Of a DNA stretch of 64,000 nucleotides, positions 3,632 to 62,143 are shown piece after piece (the stretch's first letter is position 1; each line of letters opens with the position of its first letter). The stretch is from positions 5,518,001-5,582,000 of the forward strand of contig CM120642.1 in NCBI GenBank assembly GCA_051362555.1, given 5' to 3'. The notes below the pieces were generated by a model. The model was not told where the DNA came from. It ran no database searches and saw only the letters and a program-made list of their open reading frames with translations. Source of the DNA: Lingula anatina (lineage: Eukaryota; Animalia; Brachiopoda). The position numbers and the translations under genes were made by a program.

Positions 3632-4117
3632 ATGCACTGGTGCGCCTTATTTATCTGTTTGGCAGTTGCATTAACTGCATCAGATGCATACATTTACAAA
3701 AGAGCTGAGTGGGGCGCATGGGGCCCTTGTCTGAGGAAATGCTCTGAACCGTGGGCAAGTAGATGGAAAGTTGCAACTTGCCAGCGGTGCAACAGCGACG
3801 GTTCCGGGTGCATTAACGCCCCACCATTTTCAGGCAACAGAGGGAATTGCATGGGCAATGTTATGAAACACTTCTCACCTTGTCCTTACGATCCGGAGAA
3901 CTGCACAGGTAGTGGCCCTTACACAGGCACTTGGGGGAATTTTAAGAAGAAAGGCTTTTGCCGAGGGCGAAATTTCCTTGTCGTTCCCTGTGGAAAGTGG
4001 GGATTGCGGTATTGCATAGCGACAAAGTGCAAGAGAACCAGCAGATCCAATCCTGGCCCCGTCAAATGCCCTAGGCGCGGTAGGTACTATAAATGTCTTT
4101 GCCGAAGAACATGCTGA
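3632..4117 (+). CDS. Secreted cationic cysteine-rich protein with TSP1-like motifs, paralogue 1 (161 aa, single coding exon)
   Basis: AAAATG start context and a hydrophobic ~19-aa signal peptide (MHWCALFICLAVALTASDA). It has a WGAWGPCLRKC motif and 16 mature Cys. The ORF is conserved without indels in the paralogue, and AATAAA follows at 4344-4349. Confidence 0.9.
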   Translation: MHWCALFICLAVALTASDAYIYKRAEWGAWGPCLRKCSEPWASRWKVATCQRCNSDGSGCINAPPFSGNRGNCMGNVMKHFSPCPYDPENCTGSGPYTGTWGNFKKKGFCRGRNFLVVPCGKWGLRYCIATKCKRTSRSNPGPVKCPRRGRYYKCLCRRTC

Positions 4118-4814
4118 AAGGATATCCCCACCGTCTATGACAGATATGGATAAATGTAAGGTAAATACCGTCACGTGCATCAGTCGTTCGTATTAAAATT
4201 TAAACTGCCGCTTCCCCTTGAAGTTCTTAACAAGATTAAAAACAAAATTCGAAAAGGATTTGGAATGAAGTTTTAAAAAGTACGTATAATCTGATTTGTA
4301 TTTAACCAAAAATCTTTTCATCTGTACGCGTCAGAAAAAAAGTAATAAATCAAACGTGTTTTTTAATAAGCTAAAACATTTTAACGTTGACCCGGAATAG
4401 ATCCTGCAAGATATTCGTAATAGAGTTAAGAAGTTTAGATATTCATGAATTTTGTCTTACTTTGCAAAAAATCGTCTTTCAGGTGAAAATTCTAACGGGA
4501 GTCCATAGGGAGTGAAGAAGCATTTTCAAACAGCAAAAACCTGAATGGACAAGTTCCTAACGGCTTGAAGCACAACACGAAAAAGTCAATCTGCATTGCA
4601 AGCATGGATCGCATTCACCTTTTATAATTATTAACGACGTGAACTGTTTTTTTAATATATATACAGGGCTAGACACTAACTTTTGTGAGCACCTGTCCTT
4701 CGGACATATATTTGACCTGTCCGATTTTCAATCCAACCTGTCCACAAAACCAATATTTTTTTCTATTCATACCTTTTAACTTTGTCAATTAATACGTGTA
4801 GTCATACATTTAAA

Positions 4815-4818
<4 letters not shown>

Positions 4819-4873
<55 letters not shown>
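4819..4873. repeat. (TA)n microsatellite
   Basis: Pure TA run. Similar runs occur at 46641-46700 and 53821-53886. Confidence 0.95.
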
Positions 4874-4875
<2 letters not shown>

Positions 4876-5655
4876 CCAAAACATTCAATCATATGAGCCC
4901 CGAAAATGCACCTTAAAGTGAATTTATGTTCAGATAAAAAGTTGTTTTTTCATACTTGTGAACTCCTGAAGATTTAATCTTGCATATAAGTCTGATATTT
5001 AACATCAGGGCTTCTCCTAGGATTTGGGGTACAGGGTCTACTAATTGTAAGTCTGCAATTTGATAACAGATTCACATGAAGTTTAACCAAAGCTAAAAAA
5101 AAACCTGAGCGGGAAGTGGGGAGGGGTACTGTTAAATTAATTTTATTAAAATATTCAAATTTTATAATATTTGAATAAAATTCAATGAAAATTGAAGAAT
5201 ATTCATTTTATAACACTTTAGTTATATATATGTCAACAATTTAACTCCTTAAGGGGTTATCACGTGTTTGATTTTTTAGAAATGTATGAATTAAATAAAA
5301 TCAGCATAAAAAAGTTCCCCTTCTTTCTATTTAAATTCTCATATTTGTTATTACTTATTTCTTCCTTACATCAATATAACACTGGTATATGAGAGCAATG
5401 TTAATTTATCATATTCCAGCACTAAATTTTAAACTGTAAATAACAGAGGTGATGCTAGAGTCATTAAAGAAAGCATCATACAAAATTTCAGGTTATATTT
5501 GGGCAAATAAACAACATTTCAACAAGATCTTCAGTCCCAAAGATTTCACTTTCTATAGTGAGTAGATAGCATGCCACGAGTTTGATTGACAGGCAGTATG
5601 TTGCCTTGACGACGAACTAGATATAGCCAGTTCATCCAGTCCAATCTGGCACCAG

Positions 5656-11122: not shown

Positions 11123-11163
<41 letters not shown>

Positions 11164-11209
11164 GAATGAAATTCCACCCTAAACTGCATAACTTTCAGAC
11201 AAAAAATAA

Positions 11210-11241
<32 letters not shown>

Positions 11242-13297: not shown

Positions 13298-13707
13298 TAT
13301 TGTAGACGACGTTACACATAAAATCACTGAATCATTTATTGTCTTATAGATAGCACAATTTGTTACAGTTTCGTTATCACAATGAACACCTTATCTCGTT
13401 TGTCCGTTGTGTACGTTGGACTCTTGTACAAATCTAAAAAAATGAAAAAAATGACATAAGTATGCGGTAAACAATAAACTCATAAAAACTAATATAAACA
13501 AACTACAGTATATACGTTAAATAAAAAGAAATACATTTTACCATTACTTACATTATATGCTATCTAGGGTGACCGACCGGTATGGTTCCTACTTGTGTAC
13601 TGAATTCTCTATGCATTTCAATACCACACACACCCATAATCACGTGACTGATTAGTCTTCGCATTATAAAGAGTGACCACAAGGTCATGTGACATGGCGC
13701 ACTAACA
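13298..13707 (-). repeat. 3' LTR of BEL/Pao element
   Basis: Direct repeat of 19788-20196. The only differences seen are one substitution and one 1-bp indel in an A run. Confidence 0.95.
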
Positions 13708-13948
13708 TTCCCGGCTCCTAAATTAGTTAACGCAAACTAATTTAACTTAATTACGTTAGTGCACAGTTAAAATACAATATCATATGAAAATAAACTGAAC
13801 AACCGTTATGCCTTAACTAAATATGCATTAATAGGCCTAAACCTTAAATCATTACTACTCTTAAATCTTTTACTTAACAGTCACCGTCACTTAACACCAA
13901 AATAGAAAATGTCATAAGTCTACATTTAAATGCAGATATAACTGATGG

Positions 13949-16900
13949 TTAACAATCTTTGTCATTTGCGACCAGTAAAATAAGTTTGTTCACTGGCCTA
14001 CGTAAGTTGGAATTTTGTGTTTTTAATAGTACAGTACGCACTAGTCCATTGTTGTCCATCTCCACATCCTCAACACGACCCATCGGCCATACATTTCGGG
14101 CCACGTTATCATCTTTTATGATAACTACATCTCCGACTTTGAGATTTCTTTGCTGTTTATTCCATTTGTGACGCTTTTGAAGGTTCAGCAGGTATTCTTT
14201 GCGCCATCTGGACCAAAATACATTCGAAAGATACTGAACTTTTCGCCATCTCTTTCGCAGATATAAATCATGTTGCTGAAATACGCCTGGTGGGGGTACG
14301 TTAACATGTGATCTCGCAGTCAAAATGTGGTTTGGCGTAAGAGGCTCTGCATCGTCTGGATCTGAGGATATGCTGGTTATTGGCCGAGAATTCATTATTG
14401 CTTCCACTTCACATAGAAATGTATGCAAGCAATCAGTGTCCATACGAGTTCCATATTCATGCAACAAACCAGATAATACTTTCCTAACTGAACGAATCAT
14501 ACGCTCCCACGATCCGCCCATATTACTTGCCGTAGGCGGATTGAAATGCCAGTCGACTCCAGCTTTGCACATATCGTTGTGAATGATGCCATGATTCATG
14601 TCTTCAATTGCCTGCTGAAGTTCTTTGTGAGCACCTCTGAAGTTGGTTCCGTTATCACTCCATAGTTCTATAACGTTCCCCCGACGTGCAATAAAACGCC
14701 GCAAAACATTTATAAATGTGTCCGTTTCAAGATTGATCGCTACCTCCAAATGTACGGCTCGACTTGCTAAACACGTAAAAAGGACGCCATAGCGTTTTAC
14801 TTCTTTCCGACCCTCTTTGATAATAAATGGTCCAAAATAATCGACTCCAGAACGGCTAAATGGAGGCATTGTATCATCAACTCTGCAAACTGGTAGATTG
14901 GACATTTTTTGCTCTTGTGTTACACCTCTGGTACGGCGACAGATAACACACGTTGACAACACTGAACGCACTGACGCATTACCTTTTATGACCCAGTACT
15001 TGTTGCGGAGACTGGCGAGCACATGATTACGGCCTGCATGTCCGAGGGTTGCGTGTGCCTCACGAATCACTAGTGTTGTCACATGGCATTTGCGAGGTAA
15101 AATGATCGGATGCTTGGTATGCTCTGGTATATTTGCACGAGCTAGCCTCCCTCCTACTCTCAAAACACCATCCTCCAAGAAAGGATCCAACTTATAGAGA
15201 CTACTAGATCGTGGAAGTAACTTTACCCGGCTCCGTGTTGATCCCGATTCTGCCATAGAAAGCTGGGTCACTTCAGCATTGTAAATTCCCTTGTGTAACC
15301 ACCGTACGATTTTGAGCTCTGCTTCTTCAATGTCTCTGACACCAATTGTTGAGGAAAACGCCGTTAACCTTGACTGGGATTTCAACTGAAGATACCGTAA
15401 CATCTTTGTATAAACAGCAACGGCCTTCCTCAGCTTATACCAACTGGAAAAGTGATGAACTAATTGAGAAAACGGTTCCTCAGGGTCTTCCCTTACAGTG
15501 ACAGCTGTATAGAAACCACAATGCTGAAACACATCACTTGCTCTGTCATTCTGCAATTGTAGATTATCGTTGCTATCGATGACATTCCGTGGCCAGGTAT
15601 CCTCATCACCTTGTAAGAATTCTGGACCTTGTAACCACCTTGAACTTGAAAGCAGTTGCTCAACAGAAATACCTCGTGAAGCTTCATCCGCCGTATTTTT
15701 TGAGGATGGGACGTATCTCCACTGCTCAACTTCAGAAAAATCTCGTATAAATTGCACCCTGTTCGCAACATAAATTGGAAATCGCTTGGTCTCACTGCGT
15801 ATGAAACGAAGAACCGTAACCGAATCTGTATGAAAATAAACATTCAGGCTCTGATCAAGTTCTCGTTGAATCAATTTAGCTATGCGCACTGACGTCACTG
15901 CTGCTGTGAGCTCAAGTCTAGGAATTGTCGTGACCTTGATTGGTGCCAGTCTAGCTTTGCCTGCAACAAAAGCTACGGAGACTTTTCCCGACTGATCCTT
16001 GCTCCGCAAGTATGCAACTGACCCATATCCGGTTGAACTAGCGTCAGAAAAAACGTGCAGCTGTACCTCATCAGAAGCATGCGTTGACTTAAAGCAGCGG
16101 TCGATCTTGAGATTCTCCAAGTCCGGCAAAGATGATAACCATTGTTGCCATCTTTCTAGGTACTTCTCTGGTAGAACATCGTCCCAGTCCACTTTTCCTT
16201 CCCTACAGAGATCTTGGAGGATTCTCTTCGCAGGTAAAACCACTGGTGCAATAAAACCTAATGGGTCATATATACAAGAGATGAGCGACAGGATTCCCCT
16301 TCTGGTGGGCGGCTTCTCTCTCATCATGATCGAAAATCCAAATTGGTCTGCTCTAATGTCCCACCGCACTCCTAACGTTTTAATGACGGGCAAGTCATCA
16401 CAGCTTAAATTGACAGCAGACATTTCTTTGGAATGTTCAATCTGTGGAATGGAACACATCACTTCTATGCTGTTACTGGAAAATTTTGTCAGATGAAACC
16501 CTCCCTCAGCACAGGTATGACAGAGATTCTCTACAAGATGACATGCATCCACATGATTCACAACTGATTTCAGGCAATCATCAACGTAAAAGTTTCTAAG
16601 CACAGTGTTCCTTACCTCCGCGTTTGCTGCATGTATTCCAACTTTCTTCAAAACAAAATTGGCTACACTTGGTGACGAAATTGCCCCAAAAAGGTGAACG
16701 TTCATTCTGTACTCATGTAGCTCACCACTAAGATCTCCATTTTCCCACCAAAGAAATCTCAGAAAATTTCTCTGCTCAACAGGAACTCGGATCTGGAAAA
16801 ACATGGCTTCTATATCACCTATAAAAGCTATCTGATGCTGTCTAAATCGACTGAGAACACCAAACAGGTTATTGGCTAAATCTGGTCCTTGTAAGAGGTG

Positions 16901-19753
16901 ATCGTTTAAGCTAGTCCCTTGGTACTTGGCGCTGGCATCGAAAACAACCCGCATTTTTCCTGGTTTATTCGGATTGTAGATTCCGTGGTGTGGAAGGTAC
17001 CATACCCTTCCCTCTACAGGTGTGACATCATTGATAGGAATCCGTTCTGCATATCCACGATCAATGATTTTGGACATAAAGTCAATGTAATCTGATTGAA
17101 AGGTATAGTTTTTTAACATCTTTTTCTTTTGCCACATCACTCTCTGTACAGCTTGTGATCTATTGTTTGGAATTGACACAGCTTTGGACCTAAATGGCAA
17201 TGGTACTGTATAGTGTCCGTCTGCAAAGAAAATTCCCTCCTCTACCAGTTGTATGAATTTCCTGTCCTCTTGTGACATGCCCTTTTCGTCGGGATATAAC
17301 GGCTTGTGATCATTAAAGTCGAGTTCCATCATGTGCATCACAGTGGCAGGTGTGAATAATTCTTTACAAGTTTCTTCCACCATTATTCGGTTGCATGAAA
17401 TGTGATCCACATCACTGGAATATGCTGGCCCATGTACTGTCCATCCATGTCGTAGCCGCATGGCATACGGTTTATTACCATCTGTAGGCACAACGTTCAG
17501 AGGTTCTAAAGCTAACGGGCAGTTGTTACCGATCAAAATACCGATGTCAACTCCTTGCTGAAACTCCGGTATCTCAGAGGCAATATGTCGTAAATGATCC
17601 CATCTCTGGACTATTTCCGGCGTTGCAATTTGGTGATGGTCGATTGGAATAACATTTCTGGTAAATGTCTTGGGCATGTCAATTGCGTTGCTTCCGTTCA
17701 AATCTGTAATGACCAAGCCTTCTACCAAAGTGCTATCCACGCAGTCGGTTCCTTGCATAGTGGTCAGCTTGAGCCTCGTCGGTATACCACTGGCTTCAAG
17801 GTTTTGGAACAAATCATTGGTTATAAAACACCCGCTGCTGCCATTGTCATAAAAACAGTAAGTGGTAATAACTTTGCTGCTTCCTCTCTGACTCACCTTC
17901 ACCGGTAATACCCCATGTAAAACTGTCGAGTCTGGAGAAGCGGTAGCTGCACAGCTAGACTTAACTGTAGTATCATTGGTATTTACACGCGTTGTTGAGG
18001 AATCTCGTGTCTTTTTACCATCGGTGTTGGTCTGGCTACCAAGGGAAGTTCGAAGTTGGAAACCCTCTATGTGGAGTGAAGTCGGGTGTCGCTTATGGCA
18101 CTTCTGGCATACACGTTTTCCCAAACACCCCTTGGAAATGTGGTCGGGTCTATAACAGCCAAAGCAAAGACGTTTTTCTTTTAAGAATTGTCTTTTATCA
18201 GCCATGGACTTACTTGTAAACGTTGGGCAGTCATCCAGGTCATGGTGTTGCTGACAAAGCGGACAGTTTAATGATGACCCTACGTAACCTTGTGACGTCA
18301 TGGCAAAGCTGGTCATTTTCATCTGGCCCTTACCCTGCTGAATCGTAGCGTTGGCGGGGACATGTTGCTTAGCTGCCTTTCCGTAGATTGGATCATTGGC
18401 TGCGTCTGACGCTGATGCTATGAAAGTAACAAGATCCTGAAACTTTAAAATTATATGCTCTGTCTGTCGTACTCTAGACACCTGTTCGCGCCATTTATTT
18501 TGTAAATAAAATGGTAATTTCTGAACAACATTGAGCATATTTGGAGGGTGATCTAAAACATTCAAATATGACAAACATTTCATTGCATTACAACACTTTG
18601 TCAAGAACAAAGACAACTTTTTCAGACCTATACAATCATCTTGTTTAATAACAGGCCAAGCATTGACTTTATTGATATAAACTAAAGCAGTTTTGTATGG
18701 ATCCCCATATTCTTTATCAAGTAAGCGGCGAGCTTCTTGGTATCCGGTCTCTGGATCAAACAGGAAACAACCACTGACGATGTCTTTGGGTTCACCAACG
18801 AGATGCTGATCTAGGTAATAAAGTCTGTCAGAGGGAGAAGCTGTGCGCGATGCTATACGAGTGTCAAATGCCGTCATGAAGGTCCTGTAACTGATCAGAT
18901 CGCCTGAAAACTTCGGGATTTCTGGCTGTGGAAGAGAAAGCGCGGCAACAAGCGTGTTCGTAGAAACCAAGTGGCTTTCTTCAGTCATGCTGCTCGGATG
19001 CGTATGGGCTTGGTGTGGTCTAAATTCCGGAGCATCTACGTTCAACGGTGCGCTGCTCGGGCGTTGCGTTTCACCAAGGTTGACTGAGGATGGGTTTGAA
19101 TGGGATGCATCATGGGAAGAGGTGGGTGTGGCTGCCGCATGCGTCGTGACGTCATCTTCTGCATAAACGCGTTCACGGGCACGTGCTTTTGCTATTTCAC
19201 CTTCCACTCGTAGCTGTTCATTCTCCATCATCAATCGGTGTTTTTTCTGTAGTAATTCTTTTTCAACGGTGAGTTCCGCGATCTTTGCTTGTTCCTTTAC
19301 ACGCGCTGACACCTCAGTATGGGCTGACTGTGAAGAGCGAGAACGGCGTGACGATCGTGACCCGCTACTGTGGTTACTACCTTTGGCTGAACTGGTACAA
19401 TCAGCAGTTAGTGCCTGTTCTGCCTCGCTGGTCCAATTGAGCACATGTCGTCTAAACTCTAGCATAGAAATTTGTCTTTCTTCAAACGTATGAAGTTCCT
19501 TCGTCATTTCATCCTCAGAAAGTTTTTCACAGTATTTATTATATGCAGATTGGTACTTTGCAAATAATTCATCGTACTGTTCCAAATTTGTTTTCACGAT
19601 ATGAAGGTTATTAAAGTCAGTCATAGCATTCACTGTTTTGTTACGGCATACTGTAACTGAGCGTAGCGCTGCACTTTTTCTGTCCCTTAAAGTTTTAATG
19701 GTAGTTGAGTCTGTCATAGACTGTGGTACATCTGCGTTTGTTTCACCGTTCAT
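13949..19753 (-). CDS. BEL/Pao Gag-Pol polyprotein (1934 aa)
   Basis: Gag (IPKFSGD...), three zinc knuckles (CPLCQQHHDLDDC, CFGCYRPDHISKGC, CQKCHKRHPTSLH), protease FYDNGS, RT YVDD, RNase H FSDAS...TIPRLEL, and integrase H..GH..C..C, DYFGP, SDNGTNF, WER. Confidence 0.97.
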   Translation of the reverse strand: MNGETNADVPQSMTDSTTIKTLRDRKSAALRSVTVCRNKTVNAMTDFNNLHIVKTNLEQYDELFAKYQSAYNKYCEKLSEDEMTKELHTFEERQISMLEFRRHVLNWTSEAEQALTADCTSSAKGSNHSSGSRSSRRSRSSQSAHTEVSARVKEQAKIAELTVEKELLQKKHRLMMENEQLRVEGEIAKARARERVYAEDDVTTHAAATPTSSHDASHSNPSSVNLGETQRPSSAPLNVDAPEFRPHQAHTHPSSMTEESHLVSTNTLVAALSLPQPEIPKFSGDLISYRTFMTAFDTRIASRTASPSDRLYYLDQHLVGEPKDIVSGCFLFDPETGYQEARRLLDKEYGDPYKTALVYINKVNAWPVIKQDDCIGLKKLSLFLTKCCNAMKCLSYLNVLDHPPNMLNVVQKLPFYLQNKWREQVSRVRQTEHIILKFQDLVTFIASASDAANDPIYGKAAKQHVPANATIQQGKGQMKMTSFAMTSQGYVGSSLNCPLCQQHHDLDDCPTFTSKSMADKRQFLKEKRLCFGCYRPDHISKGCLGKRVCQKCHKRHPTSLHIEGFQLRTSLGSQTNTDGKKTRDSSTTRVNTNDTTVKSSCAATASPDSTVLHGVLPVKVSQRGSSKVITTYCFYDNGSSGCFITNDLFQNLEASGIPTRLKLTTMQGTDCVDSTLVEGLVITDLNGSNAIDMPKTFTRNVIPIDHHQIATPEIVQRWDHLRHIASEIPEFQQGVDIGILIGNNCPLALEPLNVVPTDGNKPYAMRLRHGWTVHGPAYSSDVDHISCNRIMVEETCKELFTPATVMHMMELDFNDHKPLYPDEKGMSQEDRKFIQLVEEGIFFADGHYTVPLPFRSKAVSIPNNRSQAVQRVMWQKKKMLKNYTFQSDYIDFMSKIIDRGYAERIPINDVTPVEGRVWYLPHHGIYNPNKPGKMRVVFDASAKYQGTSLNDHLLQGPDLANNLFGVLSRFRQHQIAFIGDIEAMFFQIRVPVEQRNFLRFLWWENGDLSGELHEYRMNVHLFGAISSPSVANFVLKKVGIHAANAEVRNTVLRNFYVDDCLKSVVNHVDACHLVENLCHTCAEGGFHLTKFSSNSIEVMCSIPQIEHSKEMSAVNLSCDDLPVIKTLGVRWDIRADQFGFSIMMREKPPTRRGILSLISCIYDPLGFIAPVVLPAKRILQDLCREGKVDWDDVLPEKYLERWQQWLSSLPDLENLKIDRCFKSTHASDEVQLHVFSDASSTGYGSVAYLRSKDQSGKVSVAFVAGKARLAPIKVTTIPRLELTAAVTSVRIAKLIQRELDQSLNVYFHTDSVTVLRFIRSETKRFPIYVANRVQFIRDFSEVEQWRYVPSSKNTADEASRGISVEQLLSSSRWLQGPEFLQGDEDTWPRNVIDSNDNLQLQNDRASDVFQHCGFYTAVTVREDPEEPFSQLVHHFSSWYKLRKAVAVYTKMLRYLQLKSQSRLTAFSSTIGVRDIEEAELKIVRWLHKGIYNAEVTQLSMAESGSTRSRVKLLPRSSSLYKLDPFLEDGVLRVGGRLARANIPEHTKHPIILPRKCHVTTLVIREAHATLGHAGRNHVLASLRNKYWVIKGNASVRSVLSTCVICRRTRGVTQEQKMSNLPVCRVDDTMPPFSRSGVDYFGPFIIKEGRKEVKRYGVLFTCLASRAVHLEVAINLETDTFINVLRRFIARRGNVIELWSDNGTNFRGAHKELQQAIEDMNHGIIHNDMCKAGVDWHFNPPTASNMGGSWERMIRSVRKVLSGLLHEYGTRMDTDCLHTFLCEVEAIMNSRPITSISSDPDDAEPLTPNHILTARSHVNVPPPGVFQQHDLYLRKRWRKVQYLSNVFWSRWRKEYLLNLQKRHKWNKQQRNLKVGDVVIIKDDNVARNVWPMGRVEDVEMDNNGLVRTVLLKTQNSNLRRPVNKLILLVANDKDC

Positions 19754-19787
19754 GATGTCAGTGTTCGGAGCAAAATATTTGTACTAA

Positions 19788-20196
19788 TATTGTAGACGAC
19801 GTTACACATAAAATCACTGAATCATTTATTGTCTTATAGATAGCACAATTTGTTACAGTTTCGTTATCACAATGAACACCTTATCTCGTTTGTCCGTTGT
19901 GTACGTTGGACTCTTGTACAAATCTAAAAAAATTAAAAAATGACATAAGTATGCGGTAAACAATAAACTCATAAAAACTAATATAAACAAACTACAGTAT
20001 ATACGTTAAATAAAAAGAAATACATTTTACCATTACTTACATTATATGCTATCTAGGGTGACCGACCGGTATGGTTCCTACTTGTGTACTGAATTCTCTA
20101 TGCATTTCAATACCACACACACCCATAATCACGTGACTGATTAGTCTTCGCATTATAAAGAGTGACCACAAGGTCATGTGACATGGCGCACTAACA
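19788..20196 (-). repeat. 5' LTR of BEL/Pao element
   Basis: Direct repeat of 13298-13707. On the minus strand it reads TGTTAG...TCTACAATA. Confidence 0.95.
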
Positions 20197-21924
20197 TTCA
20201 TTATTATTGTAACAAGACTAGATCTAAATATTTCTATTCTTTGAGGAACTTAAATAATGAAATATACTTATTTCTTTGGCAAAAAGTATTTTTTAATTTT
20301 AAAATTAATAAGGTATATATTGGTTTTACTTTCCCTTATCTTAGAACTGCAGCAAGTAGATGGGACTATGCAGGAATTATATTTTGCAATTGCAGTATGA
20401 AATCAATTTAAAAATGAAACAGTAGCAAGAAAACAGCTATAATTGTTATGATCAAAGTGCAATCTAAGCAAGTGTCAGTTTACTCTAAATAAGAATTTAC
20501 TCTGTAACTTTGTAATAAGTACAATGTTATATAAGGAAAGCCATAAGTGGAATACTATCAAAAATGCCAACATGTACAATATTTTACTAACTCACACATT
20601 ACTAGTAAGTCTTTTTTGGTATTTAAAAGTTTTAAGTCATTTGATAATTATCTCACTATTTGAACTGGACCTCCTTCATTTAAATGGATAAACCGAGCCT
20701 TTTAAATTAGTTAAAATACTGTTTAAATATCTAAAATCACTCGAAAGTAGATGATAAGTCATTATTATCATCATTGAACGCTGCCAATCCATTATTATTT
20801 ACAAAACCTACAAAATAAAGTTAATGAAACTTATGTATAGTTTTAAATGCAGCCATCAGCTGATCGAGGTCACCATGACGTGCCGAAAAGGGGGTCAACA
20901 TTTGTAACTTTTTATCTACACATTTCTATTCCTTTGGCAGCCTCTCGATACTTTTTGATACATAGTGTGCAGTATATCATTTTAAAGCATTTGAAATGTA
21001 CTTTTTTGTGATGTAGAAGGCATATATTTTCTCCACCACATGTATGGAATAGAGGCATAAGAACCTGAGTCAATGAATTGCAGATAAAAATGGCGATTTT
21101 CAGACACACCTTCACGACAAAATTTCACAGAAAATTTGTAAATAATATAATGACAGCAAACATTATACATCAGTTAAAAGATAACTTTTTTCCGAACAAA
21201 ACCCCATCTATTAACCTCGTTTTTTTAGTATAATTTTAATTTATTCACTGACTAAACATGTATCTTCATCCTAAAAAGGTCGGAAGCTTCAGAAACTGAA
21301 ATTCAACCGTCGTTCGATCGATTAATCTTGACTAACAACTAAAATGTTTTATATCGCCAAAAAGCTCATAAACTTGGCTTTCTCACAACACTAGTAATTC
21401 TCTCACATTTTTTAAAAAGTATCAGTTTTCATTTTAGTTTAAAAATTCGGACACCCTGCCAAACTGCCATGTTGCCATCGCGCGATCGATAGAAACATAT
21501 TTTTCTCATCTAAATCGTTAACTTTAGGCAACTAACCTGAAATATCCGAAAGGCTAACCTTTCTCGCTGATAATAATACATCCAAGGTTAAATAATTTTA
21601 CTTGCTGTCAAAAATATCCGACATTAAACACGAGCATAAAATTCCCGCAGACAACACTTTCTCCCCGACTTTTCACCAAGTGCGCATGCGTACAACTTTT
21701 TGTAGCGACTTACAACAGCTCGGAAGCAGTTGTAAATTTACGTGCATATTTACAAGAGTTTGTAACTTACAAACCTTCGAGAATACCAACTTACGTGAAC
21801 GATCGGACTTACGTGAAAAGTTACAAGAATTTGTAAAGTAAAAACCTTTCGAGAATACGGCCCCTGAATTTCATGGACCAAACGTCACTTCCGGAAAGTT
21901 GCGTGAAAAGTTACAAGAATTCAG

Positions 21925-46637: not shown

Positions 46638-46704
<67 letters not shown>

Positions 46705-49700
46705 CTTTTGATGACAGGTACAAAAGGCAGTTAGATGACACACAAGGTAGAAGCAGCAAAAAATATTCCAAGATCTCTGTGACCAGCTGAGGAGACAGGA
46801 TCTGAACAAAAGGAGAGTGAAAACCAGTGCATGACAGGAGTTATTTAATTGAAGTGACACTCAGAACTCAGCATTTCATGTTCACTTTTATTCATACAAA
46901 ATGTGCACTTTTCCTATATGTTTAAGCAAATGAAGATCAATTCATGAACTGAATTATTGTTATTTTACATTGGACATCATAAATACATAAGTGTAAAAAA
47001 TGCCTTGCTTCTGAGAATGACTGAATAATAATAAAATCCTAACAATTGTATGAATGGTTGCATTCATGGTGAATATTAAACTCTCACAAACAACAGTCTT
47101 GTTACATGTACTTTCTAATGAACCAAAAAGAAGTACAAGAATGCTGAAATAATTTCTGACAGCTTCACGATGTAGAGATAAGTCATAACTGACAGCAATA
47201 TTTCATGTCATAAGACAATCCTGCATACATTCTTCCTTGAGTCCACAAGGGTTTATCCTGATGATCAGCTCAAATTTCTCCTTATATCTATCCTTTATGA
47301 AAAAAGTTGCTTCTATGTAAGGTTTAACTTATGATTACACATTAAACTCTCTCAAACCATAACTGTTATTACCCAATGAACAAGAAAAATGAAGTACAAG
47401 ATAACTGAACTATCTTCTGACAACACGATGTTGGATAAGTAGCATTTGGTAGGATTTCACGTTTTTAGACTGTCTCGAGTTCATATCGGTCGATCCCGCT
47501 GATCAGCAGAAGCTTCAGCTTGTATGTGTTCTTTTCCCTTTGGTGTACTTGATCGCGATATGAAGTTTATTTTATTTTATTTGGTTCACCTATATTACCG
47601 CTACTATTCCCCGTCGTTCATTCCCTCCAGCATGGCCGCGGGACTAGTGTTACGGAGCAAATATGACGTCACTGTAATGGGTTAATTATATCTAGCCTAC
47701 TGTAGTACCACACTCGTGGACATGTTTATATTTGCGCAATGAAACTTCTGTAGAATGTGACACGATATTGAGTCATTCAGAATGTGATAAATATATTTTT
47801 TGGTCAAATGGTGTCAAAGTGAGTATAGCGAATCTATCAGTTACATGTACACATTAAAACACCAAAACAATGTATGTACAACAAAATGAAAGATAATAAT
47901 TATATAAACAACACTATTCAGCAATTTATGAAAATTAATAGCCGTATGGTAGTGTATCAAATGAGTCTTGCTGAATGACACGTTTAGTGTACACAACCCG
48001 GTAAACTTTATCAAGTATACAAGTACATAATTAGATTTCTGTGTTTTACACACAATGATTAGAAAACCACCCTTGAAAACGTGTAAGTGTTCTCTTGTAT
48101 TTGATTTTTTTTTTTGGGGGGGGGGGGGGAGTATACATTTGAGTAAAAAAAGATTTTTACAGTTTGGAAAAATAATTCTTACCATATGAGGTGTATTAAA
48201 TTTGAAGCAAAAATATTAGTATCACTGCATCAAGAAAAAAATTTAAAAAGTCTTCACCAGACAAAAATCCAAAACCACCCCCTAGAAAATCAAATGGTTG
48301 CTGTCTCAGTGAGTTTTTTTAATAGACTGTTAACTTGCATTTTTTTCATCCCTATTCCCAGTATGTTTTGAATAAATTTTTAAAAATATATAGATATTTA
48401 TTTTCATGAATCCAGCATTTTCAACCATGTGCTGAATGCTTTATTTTGCTTTTCCCCAGAAAAATCATGAAAATTATTAATTTTTCAGTTTGAATGGACA
48501 TTGTTCCCATATAGTTGGACTCCTCAAGACACTCCAGGGATTTAAACTTCACAATTTCACACATGTACCAGACCAACAAAGCTGTACTAGCATACCACAG
48601 CAATGGCATGTACCAAGGGGTGACAAAATTCAGCCAGTGCCATTGAACCATGTTGTAGTAGCAAGGTCTGTTGGAAATAGGAAAAGACGTCCTGTTTTGT
48701 GTCACATTCAGCCAGACTGTGTGTAAGTATGCATTGGATATTGTACACAGATATCATTTGGGACGAGGCCTTTAAGATCTAACTTAAATAACTCATATGC
48801 TTGAAAGCCCATACTATGGTTTTTATTACATACTTTTTAGCAATAAAATTCTACAGAGATAATATTTTTATGTACAGTACAGACATCGGGTAGTTTGTTT
48901 TCGACCCGAGTGTAGTGTTACATTGTGTAACACTCAAATTACACTAGATGATTTAATAGTATTATTTCAAACCCTGGGTGTTCAAGTTATGTGAAAATAT
49001 TGTTGAATTTCAGATTACCAAAGATAACCCATCAAGACATCAACATCCTCAAAAACTTGAAAGGGACCCCATTGGCCTATTGCTTCAGTGGATGTTCCAA
49101 AAGTAGATACACCATTAGGAGAAGTGCAACTTGGCTCATATCTATCTTATCAGGTAAAAATCTGTGTGATATCGAATTACATTTTCGACAACAAGTTCTC
49201 ATCAGCTTTTGGCCAAAAATTGGCAAAATTGGGGTTAAAAAATCACTGTATACAATAAAGCATTTTTCACTTCTATATATACACATTTTCATTTAAATAA
49301 GTACCATTAAAAGTTATTTCTACAATTATACTTCATTTTTTAATCATCAATTATCTTCATGTGAGCTTTTATCAGTGACAAAAGTATCTTGAAATAAAGT
49401 TAAAAAGCAACATATTGTCCATATCTTATTTACACTCTGAAATAAGTTAGTTGGTATAATGTTTGAAATAATTTGGTAATTTTTAACTTTTGCAATTAGT
49501 CTTTCAATGTGAACCCTGTGTTTAGCTATTTTTTGAGTCTGGTATGTTTGTGCTGCTGTCATTTGGGCCCCACTAGATGAAAATGGAGGAATGTTCAATC
49601 TGAGCCCTAATGTTTTTAATTCTTTTTCTATTGTAAATCCTTTGTCAGCCATGACAGAGTCTCCTTCAGCAATATAACCTTGTTGCTTAAGCTTATCTAA

Positions 49701-50465
49701 ATGTTCAAAAAATGCACTCTGTTCAGTTATGCATTTATCAGATATAGACCCAGTAAATAGTTCTAAAATGAAAATAACAGATCCACTGGGATCACAGCCA
49801 ATAAGACCCTTCAGCGTTGTATTGGACTTGTAATCACTATACATCTGACTTTGCAAACCAAGAGCAGATGGAGTTTGTGTTTTGAACTCTGTACCATCAA
49901 TAATAACCAATGTATTTGGAAAATCAGCTTTAAAGTCTTTTGGCATATTCTCAATAATGATATTTCTATGTGGCCAAATTGACAGTTGTCCAAACTTAAG
50001 ATGCATGTGGACTATCCATGTATTAAAAACAATTCCAGCAGACTGAACAGTTAAACCAAACCTAATGGCAATATCCTTTAAACCAAAATTATGACGTAAC
50101 TGTATCAACACAGAAAATAAGCAGTCCTCTTGTGTCAAAATTTTATTATCATTCCGCCCTTTTTCATACTGTAGTATATAGTTGTCTGGTAGCAAAAAAT
50201 TGAACAGACTTTTAAACCTCTCATGAGTAATTCCTGTGTAGTACTTAAAGAGTCCTTATATCTTCTGTTCTTTGTCTAAAATGCTTTCTATTCCAAATTT
50301 CATTTGATCATTAATTTTTTCCTTCAGCTGTTTATTTTCGTTTTTCAATTTCATGATCATTGACTCCAATTGCTTGATTTTGTTATTTTTCAAGTCTAAT
50401 TCACCACGCAATATGTGTAAATCTGTAGATGTAGCTAACATGTCCATTGGAGAAACCCCTGCAAT

Positions 50466-50505
<40 letters not shown>

Positions 50506-51382
50506 GATAGATAAATAGATAGATAGATAGATTTACAATTATAATAAATGTATATGCTGACATGAGTTCTTATTTAAATATACATTTAATTTTCAATTAT
50601 GACTGGTTTATTTCAGACAAGAAACATCAAAAGGACAGAGTGTGTGGTGACAATCTGTTTTCAAACCATCGCCAGTGATTTTACCCGAGGAATATGTTAT
50701 TTTGAACAATGAATATAATGACACAGATTTTGTTAAGCTGGAACTTAAAACCAGATATCAATCTTTGTCAAAAGATTGGTTTGAGGCACGCAAGACCAGA
50801 CTAACTGCCTCAAATTTTGGTCGTGTGATCAATAGAAAATCAGTACCTACTGAAAATTTTTTACGAAACTTATTTTCATCAAAACAGATTACAGCTCCAT
50901 CTTTAGAATATGGAAAACGTCATGAAAGTGAAGCTAAGAAGGGATACATGGAGCGACACAGAAATACCCATTTTCATGAATGTGGGTTAGTTATTAACAA
51001 GGACTACGCATTCCTGGGGGCAACTCCAGATGGAAAGTTGTGTGACAATGGACAAACCGGAATTGTAGAAATTAAATGTCCCTTCACAGCAAGAAACATG
51101 AAAATTTTGACTGCATGCGAAGACATTGCCAATTTTTGTTTTGAAAACAATAATGGGGAAATAAGATTAAAAACAACCCATGACTATTACGCTCAAATTC
51201 AAGGACAGCTCATGATAACAGGATGCGACTTCTGTGAATTTATTGTATTTACACAATGTGATATGCATATTCAGATGATTATGCCAGATCAAGCTTACAT
51301 GACAGAACTTCTACAAAAACTATCCAGATTTTTCAAAGACTTTGCAAAACCATTTTTGCCTAATACTTTAAGCTTGAAATAA
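45242..51382 (+). pseudogene. SWIM zinc finger + YqaJ/lambda-exonuclease-like gene of ISL2EU-1 (4 exons, frameshifted)
   Basis: Exons 45242-45534, 48489-48722, 49014-49153 and 50617-51382. Splicing builds CSCKAGLNGHCSH. YqaJ motifs WFEARKTRLTASNFG, LGATPDG, VEIKCP and YYAQIQGQL are present. Exons 3 and 4 appear frameshifted. Confidence 0.85.
45640..47684. mobile_element. Non-autonomous element with AT TSD (ISL2EU-like) in intron 1 of the YqaJ gene
   Basis: Ends AT|TGACCCATTA ... TAATGGGTTA|AT, plus the subterminal inverted repeat GCCATGCTGGAGGGA / TCCCTCCAGCATGGC. Confidence 0.7.
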
Positions 51383-52700
51383 ACTTACACTGTTCTTCTG
51401 TCTAAGTGCCTGTACCAGTTTCTGTTTCAACAGTTGATTCAGATGCATGTGAATTATCCTCATCACTGCAAGAACAAAAAATAATTTTAACTAAAAAAAA
51501 TTATAATCTATGAATTTTTTGTTATGTATACAGCTGAAATGGGCATAATGGGGACATTAAATAAAGAATGTTGTTCACAAATAAATGAAATTATTGAATG
51601 GGGGCCACAAGTCCAATTTTTTTAAACTTTATTTAAACATGGAACATTATCCATAAATTTTGTGATCACTTGTACACCAGAACCAATAAATTTCCCACTG
51701 AATGCATTTCAAAAGTTTTGAGCATGAGCAAAACATTAGGGTCAGCTATTCTAATATCCAGGAACGTACAAAGAATTGTATTTCAGACGGCATTCTTGCT
51801 CATTCCGTCTCGGGCCTATATCTGGAATGTGCAAGAATCATTTGATGTTCATTCTGAGCATTCTAGCGGCATTCTTTCAAAGCCGTAAGAATTAAGGTAA
51901 ATTTGAAATTCCCTCCCAAATGGTGCATGAAATTAAAATTCTATTCATTCCAGTTGGTTCTGCTTGATTCCTGCCGATTCCGAATAAGTGTGACAGGGGT
52001 ATTAGTTTGAACAAAGCATGTTCTGTTGTGTACATAATTCCTGATCAACTTTTTATCAAGAAATGAGTTATTGAAAATTATGCTTAATTTACATGTTCTC
52101 AGATGTTTTGATGTGTAATATAATAATATTACCTTTCAACCTCCTGCAATAGTCTTTTCCTTGCTTTCCTTGCTTTTCTGAAGGCACTGCTGTCAAAGGG
52201 AATAGGATCAGGATAATCTGATGTTGGGCCAATGGCATTTTTGAAATGCTACATGAATAAAAAAATGTATAGTTTTTATCATAAGGGTTTATGGTTTAAA
52301 TCGAAGACATAAACATCAAACATATTTCCATAACACCGGTGGTTTAACAAGGAAAAAGCCCCAGTAAATAGGGAAAATACACAATTTTACGATGCGTGGC
52401 TGTTACATTTCCTGTCCTGCAATAAAAACTTACTTAATCTGTCGCCATATTAATATTCGGCGCCATCTTCACGTTTTGAATACCGTTTACTGTAAATAAA
52501 TTGTTTTTGTAATGAACTGAATAAGTTAATACTTGCACTGCATAAATAAGAGCTTTAACTCACCTTTGAACATATGTACATGTATGTGTTTTTTTGTTAC
52601 ATTCTTAACGCTAAACTGCCTGTGTGGACGACCGCATGCACGAATCCAGGTTAGACACTTCTCCAGCTGTATATTTGGCTCCGGACAGATGATTGTTTGT
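49347..52700 (-). pseudogene. THAP-HTH-DDE (DDE_Tnp_4-type) transposase of ISL2EU-1
   Basis: Exons ~52700-52564 (EKCLTWIRACGRPH...ICSK, frameshifted, N-terminus missing), 52248-52133, 51465-51416 and 50458-49347. There is an in-frame TAA at 50256. Motifs IIDGTE, YSDYKSNTTLK, MADKGF and RVHIER are present. Confidence 0.88.
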
Positions 52701-53819: not shown

Positions 53820-53888
<69 letters not shown>

Positions 53889-54264: not shown

Positions 54265-54334
54265 GATATTGTTTACCCTAGAAACCTTTCTCATAGCAGA
54301 CAAGTTCTGGAACATTATTTTCTCTAAGTATTAA

Positions 54335-54830: not shown

Positions 54831-54883
<53 letters not shown>

Positions 54884-55900: not shown

Positions 55901-56129
55901 TTAGAATTGTATCTTAAAAGATTATTAGAGTACAGCAACATATGGGGGCCACTCGGCTTGTTGACAAGTACATATTCCAAAATAATTGCAGATGACTGCC
56001 ATATTGGTGTTAAAAAAGGATTTATTTTCTTTCTATAAGTTGTTTATTGTGAATCTCATACAAAGAGCTTTTATGCCTTTACACCATAAACCTTTATAAT
56101 AAAAACTATACAATTTTTCATTCATGTAG

Positions 56130-58378
56130 CATTTCAAAAATGCCAATGGCCCAACATCAGATTATCCTGATCCTGTTCCCTTTGACAACAGTGTCTTCAG
56201 AAAAGCAAGGAAATCAAGGAAAAGACTATTGCAGGAGGATGAAAGGTATTTTATTATACAACACAACTATGCAACAAAATATCTGAGAACATGTAAATTA
56301 GGCATAATGTTCAGTTACACATTTGAGAAATATGTGCGGAATATGTACACAAGAGAGCGTGCATTGTTCAAATTTAATATTTAATTTCATAACAGAGATG
56401 GGATGCCAGAGAAGAAACGTCTACATAAACAAGCAGAAACTGAAGGAAGAGAGATAGACACTTCTGATCATCAGGAAACAGGAAAAGGTGAAACAGAAAC
56501 AGGTGTCTTTATACTTATTACTTATTTGCTTTCAGCCTAAGATATGGCACACCATATGTTAGATAAAATAAAGGTAGTTTTGTTAACATCTCTGCATGTA
56601 ATACTGGATCAGGTGCAATTCGTTCAGTAAACATGTCACAGTTAGTAAACACAATAAAATCACAGAAAGGTGCAGATGTCACAAGCAACTACCCTTGTAC
56701 TTGATAGTAATAGTCATGAGTAGGTGAAAGATGGATATTCCCATTATTTTCAACTAAACAAAAGTGAGGTAATGCTAAGCAATCAGAAATAGATTTATCT
56801 CTACCAGCATATGGACACTTTATCTCAATAATACCAGTAATACTTTTATCACAAAGTTTTCCATCAGGTGAAGCCCCTAAAAATGAAAAGGCAGGGTTTA
56901 CTACCAGACAATATCATGTATGTGTACAGATGTATATTTTGAGGTGTATGCAGCTTTGGCTAGAGGCTCATGGGTTTTGCCATAAGTAGTAGCAGTTGAT
57001 GTAAAAAAACACTCATCAAAAATTGATGAAACAAATTTATCTGTAAAATCTTTTTTCATCTTAAGGATTTTACTGAACTGAGAAGCAGTTATTCTATTTT
57101 TTCTAGCACTAAACCATGAATCACATGCTGCTTGTCTGGTGGTATTACTTTCAAGCTTGTAGCAATCATCAAGGGTCATTGGCACTACAGCATTACACTC
57201 TTGTATTATGTTTGACGCGTATGTGGGGACATTCTGTGGGAATTTAACGTTGCCACATGGGTGAACTTCTGCTGATGGAACATCTTTATAGTTTTTCATC
57301 TGAAACAAAAAATAAGTAACATTCAAATACTAAAAGTCACCAATTTCTTTGCAGATAATAGTGGACTGGCTCTATTGGCTGCTGCAGTTAAAATCAAGGA
57401 ACAAGAAATGAAAATAGAAAATATGAAAATAGAAAATATGAATGCTAAACTAGCTCATATCATGGAGGAGCAGCAGATAAAGAAAAATAAAATGCATCAT
57501 AATGGAACACAGACTGATGCTTTTCCTTCTCAACATTTTTCAGTTGACACTGTTAAGGAGTCAAAAAATCTGATGGTTTTTTATACAGGCCTGAGCGGAG
57601 ATATGTTTGAAACTCTGCTTTCTTATTCAATACCAGACCAATCTGACAACCCATTACACTATCCACATCGCAGAAGAAATATTCGGAACTTGTCTGCTAG
57701 AAATCAACTTTTCTTGTACTTTGCCGATTACGAAATGGCTTTCATGTTAAAGATTTGGCATTTAGATTCAAAATTTCAGTTCAGTCTCTTAGTGACATAT
57801 TCAATGTTTGGATTAAGCACATGTACATGAAATTGGGCTATCTTAACTGGTGGCCTCCAAGCAATGTCATTGTAGATAATATGCCTGCAACCTATAGGCA
57901 CGATTTTCCAACATTAGTTGCCATTATTGACTGCACAGAAATAAAAACGGAGAAACCATCATCTATGAAAAGTCAGAGTCAGTGTTATTCAGAATACAAG
58001 TCAACTACAACTTTAAAATCTCTAGTATGTGTGGATCCTCGAGGCTCCATTATGTTTGTTTCTAATCTTTTCTGAGGATCCATTTCAGATAATGAAATAT
58101 GTGAGAAAAGTGGATTTTTTGACCATTTAAAAACATTTATTGAGCATGGTAGTTTGTCACAAGGTGATGCTATTATGGCAGACAAGGGATTTCGTATAGA
58201 AAAGGAATTGTCCAAACTTGGCTTGGAACTAAATATTCCTCCTTTTTCAACACAATCAGCTCAAATGTCACCAGGAGATGTTGCTTTGACAAGAAAAATT
58301 GCTGCACACAGAATTCATGTTGAATGGGCAATAAACAGAATTAAGAATTTCAAATTAGTTGCAAGAAAAATTAACGTA
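56130..58378 (+). pseudogene. DDE transposase of ISL2EU-2 (frameshift, stop, truncated)
   Basis: Exons 56130-56245, 56396-56502 and 57355-~58378. Motifs IIDCTEI, YSEYKSTTTLK, MADKGF and RIHVE are present. There is a frameshift near 57720 and TGA at 58073. Confidence 0.85.
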
Positions 58379-59270
58379 CTGGGGTATATAATAATTTTTT
58401 TAATATTCAAAGCAGTACATACTTTTCTTGTAATATGGCAGTATATACAGGCTTTCTTTTCCTGTCAGTGGCAGATTTGGCCTTGGACATGACCATTTCC
58501 ATCACTGGTGCAGGGGAGATCTTTTTTCCTCTAGGTTTGTGCCACTGTTGAGGTAAACTGGTGGCTGACAGCTCAGCAGGCACTTCCTTCAAACCATACT
58601 GCTGGTAGTGTGCCAGAGTGTGCACTAGACCGTATATGTGAGAGCAATCCCCACTCATTCTGAAAGCAATAACAATAGTTTCTCCTATTTAGAAGAAATG
58701 TTTTCAGTTAATCAAAATTTTCACCAAACAGTTTAGTGATCCTACGTTCAGAAAAAAAGTGTATCAGACCATATGGGCCTTTAACTATTTATTGGTTTGA
58801 TATATCGATACAGACTGTGACCAAACTAAAATGCATGAGATATTTATGAAGGACCCTCCATTATCCATAGTCTAGACGATAGCTAATCATGCACATAAAC
58901 CAGATGGCACTAGAAGTATCTTAAATTGTGACTCAAAGACACGTTCTTCTGGAGAAATCTAGATGTAAAGTCCAAAATAATAAGGTACCTACCCAGCAAC
59001 ATAGCTGCACTGACTGTTAACGATCTTATTGTCAGTGCACGATAAAGTCAATGGAAGGCCATGCGGCGGGTCGCTCTTCCCCATTGACCGGTAGCACTTT
59101 GCACGCACGTCCACCTCTCCCTTCTCCTTCTGCTCACAGAAACACACCGCGTGGATATACCCCTCCACAAAATATGAGTATCCCTTTTGTTTACTACGCT
59201 TAGATAAAGTATTAGTGAAGCAACACAACGAAATTTCTCCCGGCAGAACCTCTAAACGAGTAGTCGCCAT
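56518..59270 (-). pseudogene. SWIM-YqaJ gene of ISL2EU-2 (exon 3 deleted, frameshift)
   Basis: Exons 59270-~58992, ~58659-58423 and 57299-56518. Motifs GYSYFVEGYIH, GDCSHI, TSLPQQWHKPRG, WFSARKNRITASQF, LGASPDG, IEIKCP and YYYQVQG are present. Confidence 0.82.
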
Positions 59271-59353
59271 GTTTACACAAGTATGTGCTTTTTGTCCTAC
59301 TTTCGGTCGTCGCTAGGCAAAAATTGAAGTGGGCGGAGCTAAGGGATCGGTGT

Positions 59354-62143
59354 ATTGTATGTCAGTTTTGGCTAAAGTAATATTCATAACTTGCTGGGGC
59401 AGGTGCTTCTCCTGCCCTCAGAATAGACAGATCAAGTTGGCCAACGAGTTTATTGGAGCCTTGTTAACTGCTTTAATTTAAAAGGCAAAAAGTTTCAAAA
59501 AAACTTTTAAAAAGTTCAGTGCATATTCATGAGGCTGAATGAACACTTCCCAGGACAAGTGCTTTAAGGACATGAATTTTAAATGTTTACTTAGTGTTGT
59601 TTATCACACAGATTTCAATATTTTGCACTTTTAAAAACAAAAATGTAAATTTTAAATAGATTAGGGGTATTTTTTCAAATTATAATTAAATTGGAAGGGT
59701 CTTATTTTAAATAATTTAATATGTAAGAGACAAAAATAGTACTAGTACATAGAAATAAATCTTGAGCAGTAAAATAACAGAACAAGACAGAAGTGCATAT
59801 AATATAATGATTAAACCGGAGTTGAAGGATTTTTTATCAAAACCCTCTCAGGCTTTAAAAAGTACAACCTGGTCATAGGCCAGTACTTCATTGTAAATAT
59901 TTATTCAATTAAAAAAAATCTTGTTTTATTTATAACTAGATCTAGCAATAGGCCTATATGTCTTTCTATATTGGTCAAAATTCACACTGGATTTCTTGTG
60001 GATTGGATCGTAGGCTAACTATACCATTTTCGTTGTTTTAAGAATGAAGTATAGCCTATAACTCTTGGAATATTTCTGATGTTAGAAGTACAGCACTTAT
60101 TCGTATTTTAGTTTTATTTTGACTTGTTTGCTCTGATATTCAGAATATTTAAGAAAACTTGTAGTTTTGCTAAGTCGGGTCAGTTCTTCAGGTTGGTCAC
60201 GGGACGCTATAAATTAGGCCTATGATGAAAATGGGGTTCCATTTTTGTCGTCGTTTTGGAGATGCACTAATTTCCCCACACAAAATGGGTAAAAATTGTA
60301 GGAGACATACCTTATGATATATTATTTGAAAGTTTATGATCTCGTCTTTCTGCAGAATGTGATTGTTTGAAAATATTTTGCGTTTCCTGCGATACATAAT
60401 GAGAGTAACCTACTGCAGTTGAAAAAATCGGTTTTGCCAACTTTAACACCGACTTCACGGGATTATTAACACTTTGCCAACCAGATGGGAGTCGAACGCA
60501 ACATATATTTCATATCAACACGAAGCCCACTTGTTTAGCTTTTAGAATTTATATAAAACGCTGGTGATATAAACATTATAGCAATTTTGTTATAATTTAA
60601 ACGCCCCAATGTTATACGCTTCAAAAATGCGAGTGTTGGCGTCGCGTTCACCTCGCGCTTAAAAAATGTATCTATCGTTTAATCACACCAACTGTTGACA
60701 AAAATACACATGAAAATACGAAGAGCTCAAAAGTCGTCCATTTTCACTCGATTTTGCTGAACGTAGAGCGAAAATGGCCGTCGCTTCAGCCAGTGTGCAC
60801 GCGCAGCTCGAAATCTGCGGACAGACTGTTCTGTTTAGGCGCATGCAAGTGTTCTATTCTGTAACGTTCTCTCGAGCGCGACGTTATCATTTTGCCGGAA
60901 GAGTGATGTCGTTGCCGATCCAGTGACGTCACCATAGCGTTTCAAACAACCAACTACAAAGACAGAAAAAAATCTGCAAAAATGCACTGGTGCGCCTTAT
61001 TTATCTGTTTGGCAGTTGCATTAACTGCATCAGATGCATACATTTACAAAAGAGCTGAGTGGAGCCCATGGAGCTCTTGTGCGAGGAAATGCTCTGAAAT
61101 GTGGGCACGTAGATGGAGAGTTGCAACTTGCCAGCGGTGCAACAGCGACGGTTCCGGTTGCGTTAACGCCCCACCATTTTCAGGCTACAGAGGGAATTGC
61201 TGGCGCAGTGTTATGAAACACTCGGATTTGTGTCCTTTCGATCCGGAGGACTGCACAGGTAGTGGCCCTTACACAGGCGCTTGGGGGAATTTTAAGAAGA
61301 GGGGCCATTGCCGAGCGCCAAATTTCTCTCTCGCTCCCTGTGGAGAGAAGGGAAAACAGCTTTGCGTGGCGACAAAGTGCAAGAGAACCAGCAGATCCGA
61401 TCCTGGCCCCGTCAAATGCTCTTGGCGCGGTAGGTACAAGAAATGTCCTTGCCTAGGACCATGCGGAAAGGATATCCCCACCGTCTATGACAGATATGGA
61501 TAAATGTAAGGTAAATACCGTCACGTGCATCAGTCGTTCGTATTGAAATTTAAACTGCCGCTTCCCCTTGAAGTTCTTAACAAGATTAAAAACGAAATTC
61601 GAAAAGGATTTGGAATGAAGTTTAAAAAAGTTCGTATAATCTGATTTGTATTTAACCAAAAATCTTTTCATCTGGACGCGTCAGAAAAAAAGTAATAAAT
61701 CAAACGTGTTTTTTAATAAGCTAAAACATTTTAACGTTGACCCGGAATAGATCCTGCAAGATATTCGTAATAGAGTTAAGAAGTTTAGATATTCATGAAT
61801 TCATGAATTTTGTCTTACTTTGTAAAAAAATCGTCTTTCAGGTGAAAATTCTAACGGGAGTCCATAGGGAGTGAAGAAGCATTTTCAAACAGCAAAAACC
61901 TGAATGGACAAGTTCCTATCGGCTTGAAGCACAACACGAAAAAGTCAATCTGCATTGCAAGCATGGATCGCATTCACCTTTTATAATTATTAACGTTACG
62001 TGAACTGTTTTTTTAATATATATATTTTGGTTCTGTCTGTGTATAAATATAAATAATATATGCATAAAAAGGAATTGTAACAAAAATTCAAGCAAATAAT
62101 AATTAATTTAGAAAGCTTGCAGGATGGGCATGCTATTATTCTG
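59354..62143 (+). repeat. Segmental duplication copy 2 (partner 2205-6863)
   Basis: Colinear and near-identical to copy 1. Similarity resumes at 62845-63257 versus 26745-27149. Confidence 0.95.
60982..61503 (+). CDS. Secreted cationic cysteine-rich protein with TSP1-like motifs, paralogue 2 (173 aa, single coding exon)
   Basis: Signal peptide identical to copy 1, a WSPWSSCARKC TSP1-like motif, the same 16 Cys, a 12-aa C-terminal extension and AATAAA at 61694-61699. Confidence 0.9.
   Translation: MHWCALFICLAVALTASDAYIYKRAEWSPWSSCARKCSEMWARRWRVATCQRCNSDGSGCVNAPPFSGYRGNCWRSVMKHSDLCPFDPEDCTGSGPYTGAWGNFKKRGHCRAPNFSLAPCGEKGKQLCVATKCKRTSRSDPGPVKCSWRGRYKKCPCLGPCGKDIPTVYDRYG

Follow-up and report, generated by a model that had tools for sequence, protein, structure and literature searches.

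A duplicated cysteine-rich gene pair of the brachiopod Lingula anatina with a mature region very probably under diversifying selection

Mussel myticins (PMC7356231) and MgCRP-I peptides (PMC4558851) are described as duplicated genes that combine a conserved signal region and invariant cysteines with a positively selected mature region. Their mature peptides are cut from a propeptide, have 25-40 amino acids (aa) with 6-8 Cys and are encoded by multi-exon genes (PMC4558851, PMC7356231). Here we describe a gene pair with a similar pattern in a 64,000-nucleotide stretch of the Lingula anatina genome (GCA_051362555.1, contig CM120642.1, positions 5,518,001 to 5,582,000 of the forward strand), which we call the window. 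The two genes, copy A and copy B, lie 57 kb apart, both on the + strand (Table 1). They share with the mussel peptides the invariant Cys scaffold and a mature region that appears positively selected. Unlike them, each is a single uninterrupted open reading frame (ORF). Its mature part of 142-154 aa contains 16 Cys and 6-7 Trp, carries a net charge between +17 and +22, and is not short as in MgCRP-I, myticin and conotoxin-type peptides. We found no sequence similarity to MgCRP-I or myticins. The evolutionary mode is already known from myticins, MgCRP-I and conotoxins, and the A/B family itself is unnamed.

The ORFs of A and B aligned without gaps, and all 59 nucleotide differences fell in codons 28-162 (59/405). 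There, 40 residues differ, codon 162 reads TGA in A and GGA (Gly) in B, and one codon difference (Gly59) is purely silent. The first 27 codons are identical (0/81 nucleotides differ), and the Cys positions, 16 in the mature part and 2 in the signal, are the same in both copies. All flanks together differ at 33/1837 positions (1.8%), and the 546 aligned bases downstream contain 7 substitutions and 3 gap events. The unusual feature of the locus is this tenfold excess of change in the mature part compared with its flanks. The differences are split 30/21/8 over the three codon positions, 23 of the 40 replacements have a negative BLOSUM62 score, and the changes concentrate in three hypervariable segments. 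Four-fold sites differ at 1/49, which is the level of the flanks. Our recount returned the same numbers as an earlier note on this DNA, which had listed the 59 nucleotides, the 40 residues plus the stop, the single silent codon and the 16 mature Cys, and had described the 3' flank as nearly identical.

The earlier note had read the pair as an effector or recognition family in an arms race, and every test that we ran supports diversifying selection on the mature region. When 58 substitutions were placed at random, about 10.9 silent codons were expected and the probability of obtaining at most one was 1e-4. Had the mature region diverged like its flanks, about 5.7 nonsynonymous differences would be expected; 50 or more were counted. 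The earlier contrast of 40 amino acid-changing codons with one silent codon is right as a codon count. Expressed as substitutions, however, 2-8 of the 58 steps are synonymous and 50-56 nonsynonymous, depending on the path. Since differences are counted as substitutions and not as codons, the NG86 estimate of omega is 2.8 (Fisher p 0.010) and not 40. The GY94 fit gave an omega of 7.5 (likelihood ratio test, LRT, p 1.3e-4). After 14 multi-nucleotide codons were dropped it gave 10.9 (p 9e-4), so multi-nucleotide mutations are not the explanation. A two-class model was favoured over the nearly neutral model (LRT 54). In the free two-class model omega2 reached its bound (300) and is therefore not usable as an estimate of size; with neutral divergence fixed at 0.018-0.08, the model assigned 17-25% of codons an omega of 30-123. 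These omega values rest on one sequence pair, and all they establish is a large, concentrated excess. The Cys codons were left untouched (P=4e-4 under random placement). On these results, the mature region of the A/B pair is very probably under diversifying selection.

The identity of the signal peptide and Cys codons had also been presented as a frozen framework. The codons are indeed identical, but the argument was overstated and no special freezing is seen. At the flank rate an identical stretch of 81 nucleotides has P=0.25, and at the Cys third positions 0.29 changes are expected (P0=0.75). Young duplicates would give the same identity, so it is not evidence of freezing.

Each copy sits in its own duplicate of a block of about 2.5 kb, and the outer flanks of A and B are unrelated. 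At the same point of the block, upstream of each ORF, A and B carry different inserts. The B insert is likely a dispersed repeat, since the RNA reads that stack on it come from related sequences. The B locus is present in real DNA: nine of the 21 listed runs, from three studies, contain at least half of its words, and these include runs from two studies besides that of the best-matching run. Among the indexed runs, no RNA run was listed as containing the locus, which speaks neither for nor against expression. We found no third copy of the gene in the window by tblastn or relaxed blastn. Two histories may account for the pair: the copies may have arisen by a recent duplication and then diverged very fast, or they may be older variants kept by selection, with conversion homogenising their neutral sites. 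Both would need selection. The differences are clustered (17 adjacent pairs compared with 8.5 expected, p 0.002), which fits either history.

Copy A has a putative signal peptide at about codons 1-18, predicted from the hydrophobic N-terminus by hydropathy, and its mature part with 16 Cys has a net charge of about +22 and a pI of 9.8. Copy B shares this scaffold and extends it by a tail of 12 residues; its net charge is about +17 and its pI 9.4. The tail (61468-61503), which is missing in copy A, ends in Tyr-Gly-stop, a possible amidation signal. The +1 frame of copy A is likewise open across the tail.

We next consider the fold of the predicted protein, which the earlier note called thrombospondin type-1-like. 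As a lead this is fair. The best PDB matches are two chains with thrombospondin type-1 repeats (TSRs), although weak (E 0.8 and 1.7). Of the Atlas matches with an assigned family, the ten best all fall in the TSR family or its clan, with a top score of 0.89; we use this as a lead only. Clearer motifs are found in relatives. Membership in the family did not stand, as there was neither a Pfam match nor a usable model. Midkine and pleiotrophin are conserved growth factors and not hypervariable. Like the predicted A/B protein they are small, basic, secreted and built of two TSR-like domains (PMC2173040), and they rank 21 in the Atlas (score 0.82). Unlike in these proteins, the PTN_MK_N and PTN_MK_C Pfam profiles are unmatched in A/B and the Cys count differs.

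The hallmarks of a TSR are the W*W*W motif in strand A and the R*R*R motif in strand B, and TSR faces bind glycans via a basic groove (PMC2173040). With TSR proteins (PF00090/PF19028), A and B share a WxxWxxC start, a basic strand-B-like stretch (RWR/RWK) in half 1 and the layout of a Cys-rich, putatively secreted module. In contrast to them, A/B would stand alone as a protein of two modules and evolve under strong diversifying selection. Half 1 has two Trp, and the corresponding stretch of half 2 has one; half 2 has no WxxW. A and B have no CSxTCG motif, and with 8 Cys per half they fit neither the group 1 nor the group 2 Cys pattern. A blastp comparison of the two halves detected no internal repeat.

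Two relatives were found. P0121 came from an unfiltered search of 1.84 billion proteins (E 1.8e-5), and P0122 was added by a profile search. They align with A/B from the signal peptide to about residue 147 (P0121) or 105 (P0122) at 28-31% identity, with local scores of 126-143 compared with at most 71 in 2000 shuffles. Both are of similar length (172-175 aa) and retain the signal, WxxW, the Cys spacing and the linker motif. They differ from A/B in being less basic, and they have neither a name nor a Pfam family, TSR-type families included. P0122 contains a full W*W*W motif (WTEWTKW), and both carry GxQxRxRxC in half 2, which is missing from A and B. Since these relatives with about 30% identity keep the whole architecture with clearer TSR motifs, the A/B scaffold likely consists of two degenerate TSRs. 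Positions that A/B share with the two distant relatives are variable between A and B in 4/32 cases, compared with 29/84 elsewhere (p 0.02).

The C-termini of P0121 and P0122 consist of Cys-Lys-Val followed by a hydrophobic run. Since this resembles read-through of a splice donor, they may be the first exons of longer proteins. In the window, strong GT donor-like sites (4156, 4161) directly follow the position of B's stop and a TTTCAG acceptor-like site ends at 4482, giving a candidate 3' intron (4156-4482) with a counterpart in the B block. A single-sequence word search for homologues found none among 4 candidates, and there was no relative among 118 pattern matches in JGI metagenomes, where a 17-residue match (L001) was rejected as chance. 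PDB profile matches to MYT1 zinc fingers (E 1e-4 to 0.015) were set aside as well; the protein matched is nuclear and the similarity is confined to a single short CxGxGxxTG stretch, which we take as convergence or chance. The view that A/B do not belong to a named family held, as no Pfam, significant PDB or annotated match was obtained.

Our preferred explanation, which we would give a probability of roughly 0.45, is that A/B encode a cationic defence protein that binds a ligand, is induced or limited to certain cells, and takes part in an arms race. A single-ORF Lingula gene would have been duplicated, with divergent selection then acting on the copies, or variants kept for a long time would have had their neutral sites homogenised by conversion. 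The resulting binder would be secreted and cationic, with disulfides bracing two degenerate TSR-like halves, and would be made on induction or in few cells. Its variable exposed segments would contact a changing foreign target, for example a microbe or parasite surface. Since an intact frame is under strong selection, the gene is presumably expressed somewhere. The perfect palindrome upstream of each ATG, which we take to be of CRE type, is compatible with induction, as a consensus match only. We count in favour of a defence protein that myticins (PMC7356231) and MgCRP-I (PMC4558851) carry the same evolutionary pattern. MgCRP-I expression is described as very low in naive adult mussels (PMC4558851).

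Several observations weigh against this explanation. MgCRP-I peptides of like pattern were reported to have no antimicrobial or toxic activity when assayed (PMC4558851). No result of ours favours a microbial target over a gamete or matrix partner, and the comparison covers one pair of sequences, too few to fix the direction of change, the family size or the values at single sites. Neither A nor B matched a Pfam family at E<=1. For the three-stranded, CWR-layered fold of a TSR, the AlphaFold2 models, with a mean pLDDT of 36.2 (single sequence) and 34.3 (4 sequences), were unusable. RNA was searched in four of nine listed raw runs, which come from three studies and whose tissues are not given; 6-25% of every run was covered, about 41 million records in all. 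Reads were mapped at 80% likeness, a threshold at which copy A should also be caught. There was no read on 61096-62000 in the four runs; one read, in run X18 only, spans about 60900-61052, and the other reads fell on the upstream insert. A, B and close paralogues of 95-303 aa were also missing from the protein collection, which includes NCBI Lingula models. The gene is therefore silent or very low in the RNA samples examined, with next to no transcript and one read on the gene. Since just two copies are in hand, we infer a family rather than observe one, and because of the near lack of transcript the same holds for the term effector.

The main rival to defence is gamete recognition, in which A/B would be a gamete-recognition or spawning protein, i.e. 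a gonad-restricted secreted ligand shaped by sperm-egg coevolution like lysin or bindin. Broadcast spawners are often under such selection, and the near absence of the gene from the four RNA runs and the protein collection fits a restricted tissue. The part of the Lingula genome paper's tissue list that we covered (mantle, lophophore, gut, digestive cecum, pedicle, regenerated pedicle and embryos; the full list has seven adult tissues) contains no gonad (PMC4595640). The fertilised egg was, however, among the RNA samples of that paper, and we found no similarity to known gamete proteins in Pfam, PDB and protein searches. We regard a gamete role as rather unlikely.

A matrix protein of shell, pedicle or mucus, with a binding surface retuned after duplication, is improbable. 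TSP_1 is given among the commonest domains in Lingula shell proteins (PMC13425148), young extracellular-matrix duplicates under positive selection are reported for Lingula (PMC4595640), and the Magellania shell proteome contains a small secreted protein with two TSP1 domains. However, that protein is laid out otherwise (211 aa, TSP1 at 23-67 and 161-210), as far as a comparison by description goes. Two 7-residue motifs of A/B were not in the searched supplements of both Lingula papers, although these files may contain nothing but ids. For a structural protein, replacements in tenfold excess would also be extreme.

The pattern could also have arisen without selection, from a pseudogene, a conversion tract of an old paralogue, a local mutator, or alleles assembled in tandem. 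The lack of nearly all RNA, the stop in A where B continues for 12 codons and the clustering of differences would suit such origins. However, neutral processes would not yield the observed codon-position split or the single four-fold difference, the remaining five frames carry stops and more silent codons, and omega stays >10 without multi-nucleotide codons. A pseudogene and a local mutator are argued against because neither would respect codon position. For a deaminase mutator, whose target motif is WRC/GYW, just 4/30 transitions lie in the motif, compared with a background of 26%. AID-like deaminases are nevertheless present in Lingula (PMC5956068). Conversion from an old paralogue, by which the earlier note thought its own claim could be overturned, is argued against since silent changes sit at flank level. 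The flank divergence of 1.8% is near the species heterozygosity of 1.6% (PMC4595640), as alleles would be; the common block with unrelated outer flanks favours paralogues, and if A and B were alleles, selection would be needed all the same. Judged on the pattern of substitutions, explanations without selection are very improbable, and for these two sequences we consider them largely refuted.

Finally, a signal peptide with a Cys scaffold and hypervariable loops is the pattern of venom peptides, but no toxin family matched in Pfam, PDB and profile searches, Lingula feeds by filtering and is not known to have a venom organ, and a predator- or fouling-deterrent toxin of conotoxin-like mode is the least probable of these alternatives.

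The 55 kb separating A and B contain transposon ORFs and satellites. A young BEL/Pao long terminal repeat retrotransposon (13298-20199, - strand) has an intact 1934-aa ORF and 413-bp terminal repeats that are 99.5% identical. A 501-residue stretch of its ORF is 100% identical to an NCBI Lingula anatina model, while the other 119 listed matches reach <=62%. An intact 704-aa ORF (36828-38942, - strand) with weak, below-cut-off matches to Transposase_21 and DUF4218 likely belongs to a CACTA-type DNA transposon. Two pairs of DDE_Tnp_4 (Harbinger-like) and YqaJ-domain ORFs (49347-51382 and 56901-58492) have an inverted repeat (52006-52300 / 56078-56372) between them. A 146-bp tandem satellite (28282-30143, 12.8 copies) has a related inverted array near the window start (685-1109). 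A 30-bp tandem repeat (34055-34354, 10 copies) leaves several frames open on both strands, which results in spurious ORFs. Rfam gave no match in the window.

Table 1. Features of the A/B gene pair and its duplicated block, in window positions
Feature	Position	Strand	Remarks
Copy A	3632-4117	+	Uninterrupted ORF, 161 aa
Copy B	60982-61503	+	Uninterrupted ORF, 173 aa
Duplicated block around A	2205-4663	+	Non-coding parts 1.3-2.7% from B block
Duplicated block around B	59354-62024	+	Outside sequence unrelated to A's surroundings
A-only upstream insert	3356-3482	.	16-bp minisatellite element; related copy at 1507-1640
B-only upstream insert	60526-60831	.	RNA reads stacked on its examined part, 60700-60831
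Palindrome, presumed CRE-type	3574-3581 (B: 60924-60931)	+	Consensus match only; about 50 bp before ATG
Hypervariable segment 1	3851-3880 (B: 61201-61230)	+	Codons 74-83
Hypervariable segment 2	3950-4018 (B: 61300-61368)	+	Codons 107-129
Hypervariable segment 3	4070-4117 (B: 61420-61467)	+	Codons 147-162; includes the stop/Gly difference
3' stretch of A matching B tail	4118-4153	+	Untranslated in A; reading through the stop would give B's 12 codons
AATAAA, candidate polyadenylation signal	4344-4349 (B: 61694-61699)	+	

In the literature we found no paper on the A/B family and no description of hypervariable genes of this sort in brachiopods; a 2018 review of Lingula immune genes and the Magellania supplements lay outside the scope of this search and may bear on it. 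The Lingula genome paper had already noted, in general terms, that young extracellular duplicates show positive selection (PMC4595640).

A wider interpretation, which we put forward tentatively and with more doubt than confidence, is that A/B could represent the first brachiopod hypervariable effector or recognition family. Its members would be secreted binders of two modules derived from TSRs, and other organisms would have unnamed relatives of them. About one fifth to one quarter of the codons would change at a pace tens of times that of neutral sites, and conversion or a very recent duplication would keep the rest allele-like. Such genes would give Lingula a germline repertoire of specific ligands against parasites or for gamete matching.

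The selection signal of the A/B pair is unusually clean, with 40 residue changes between otherwise allele-like copies. Genes of such a pattern usually mark molecules that decide host-parasite or sperm-egg specificity. If expressed, the A/B gene would open a direct way into the study of immunity or fertilisation in brachiopods, and it would suggest that a TSR-like scaffold has been reused as a variable binder.

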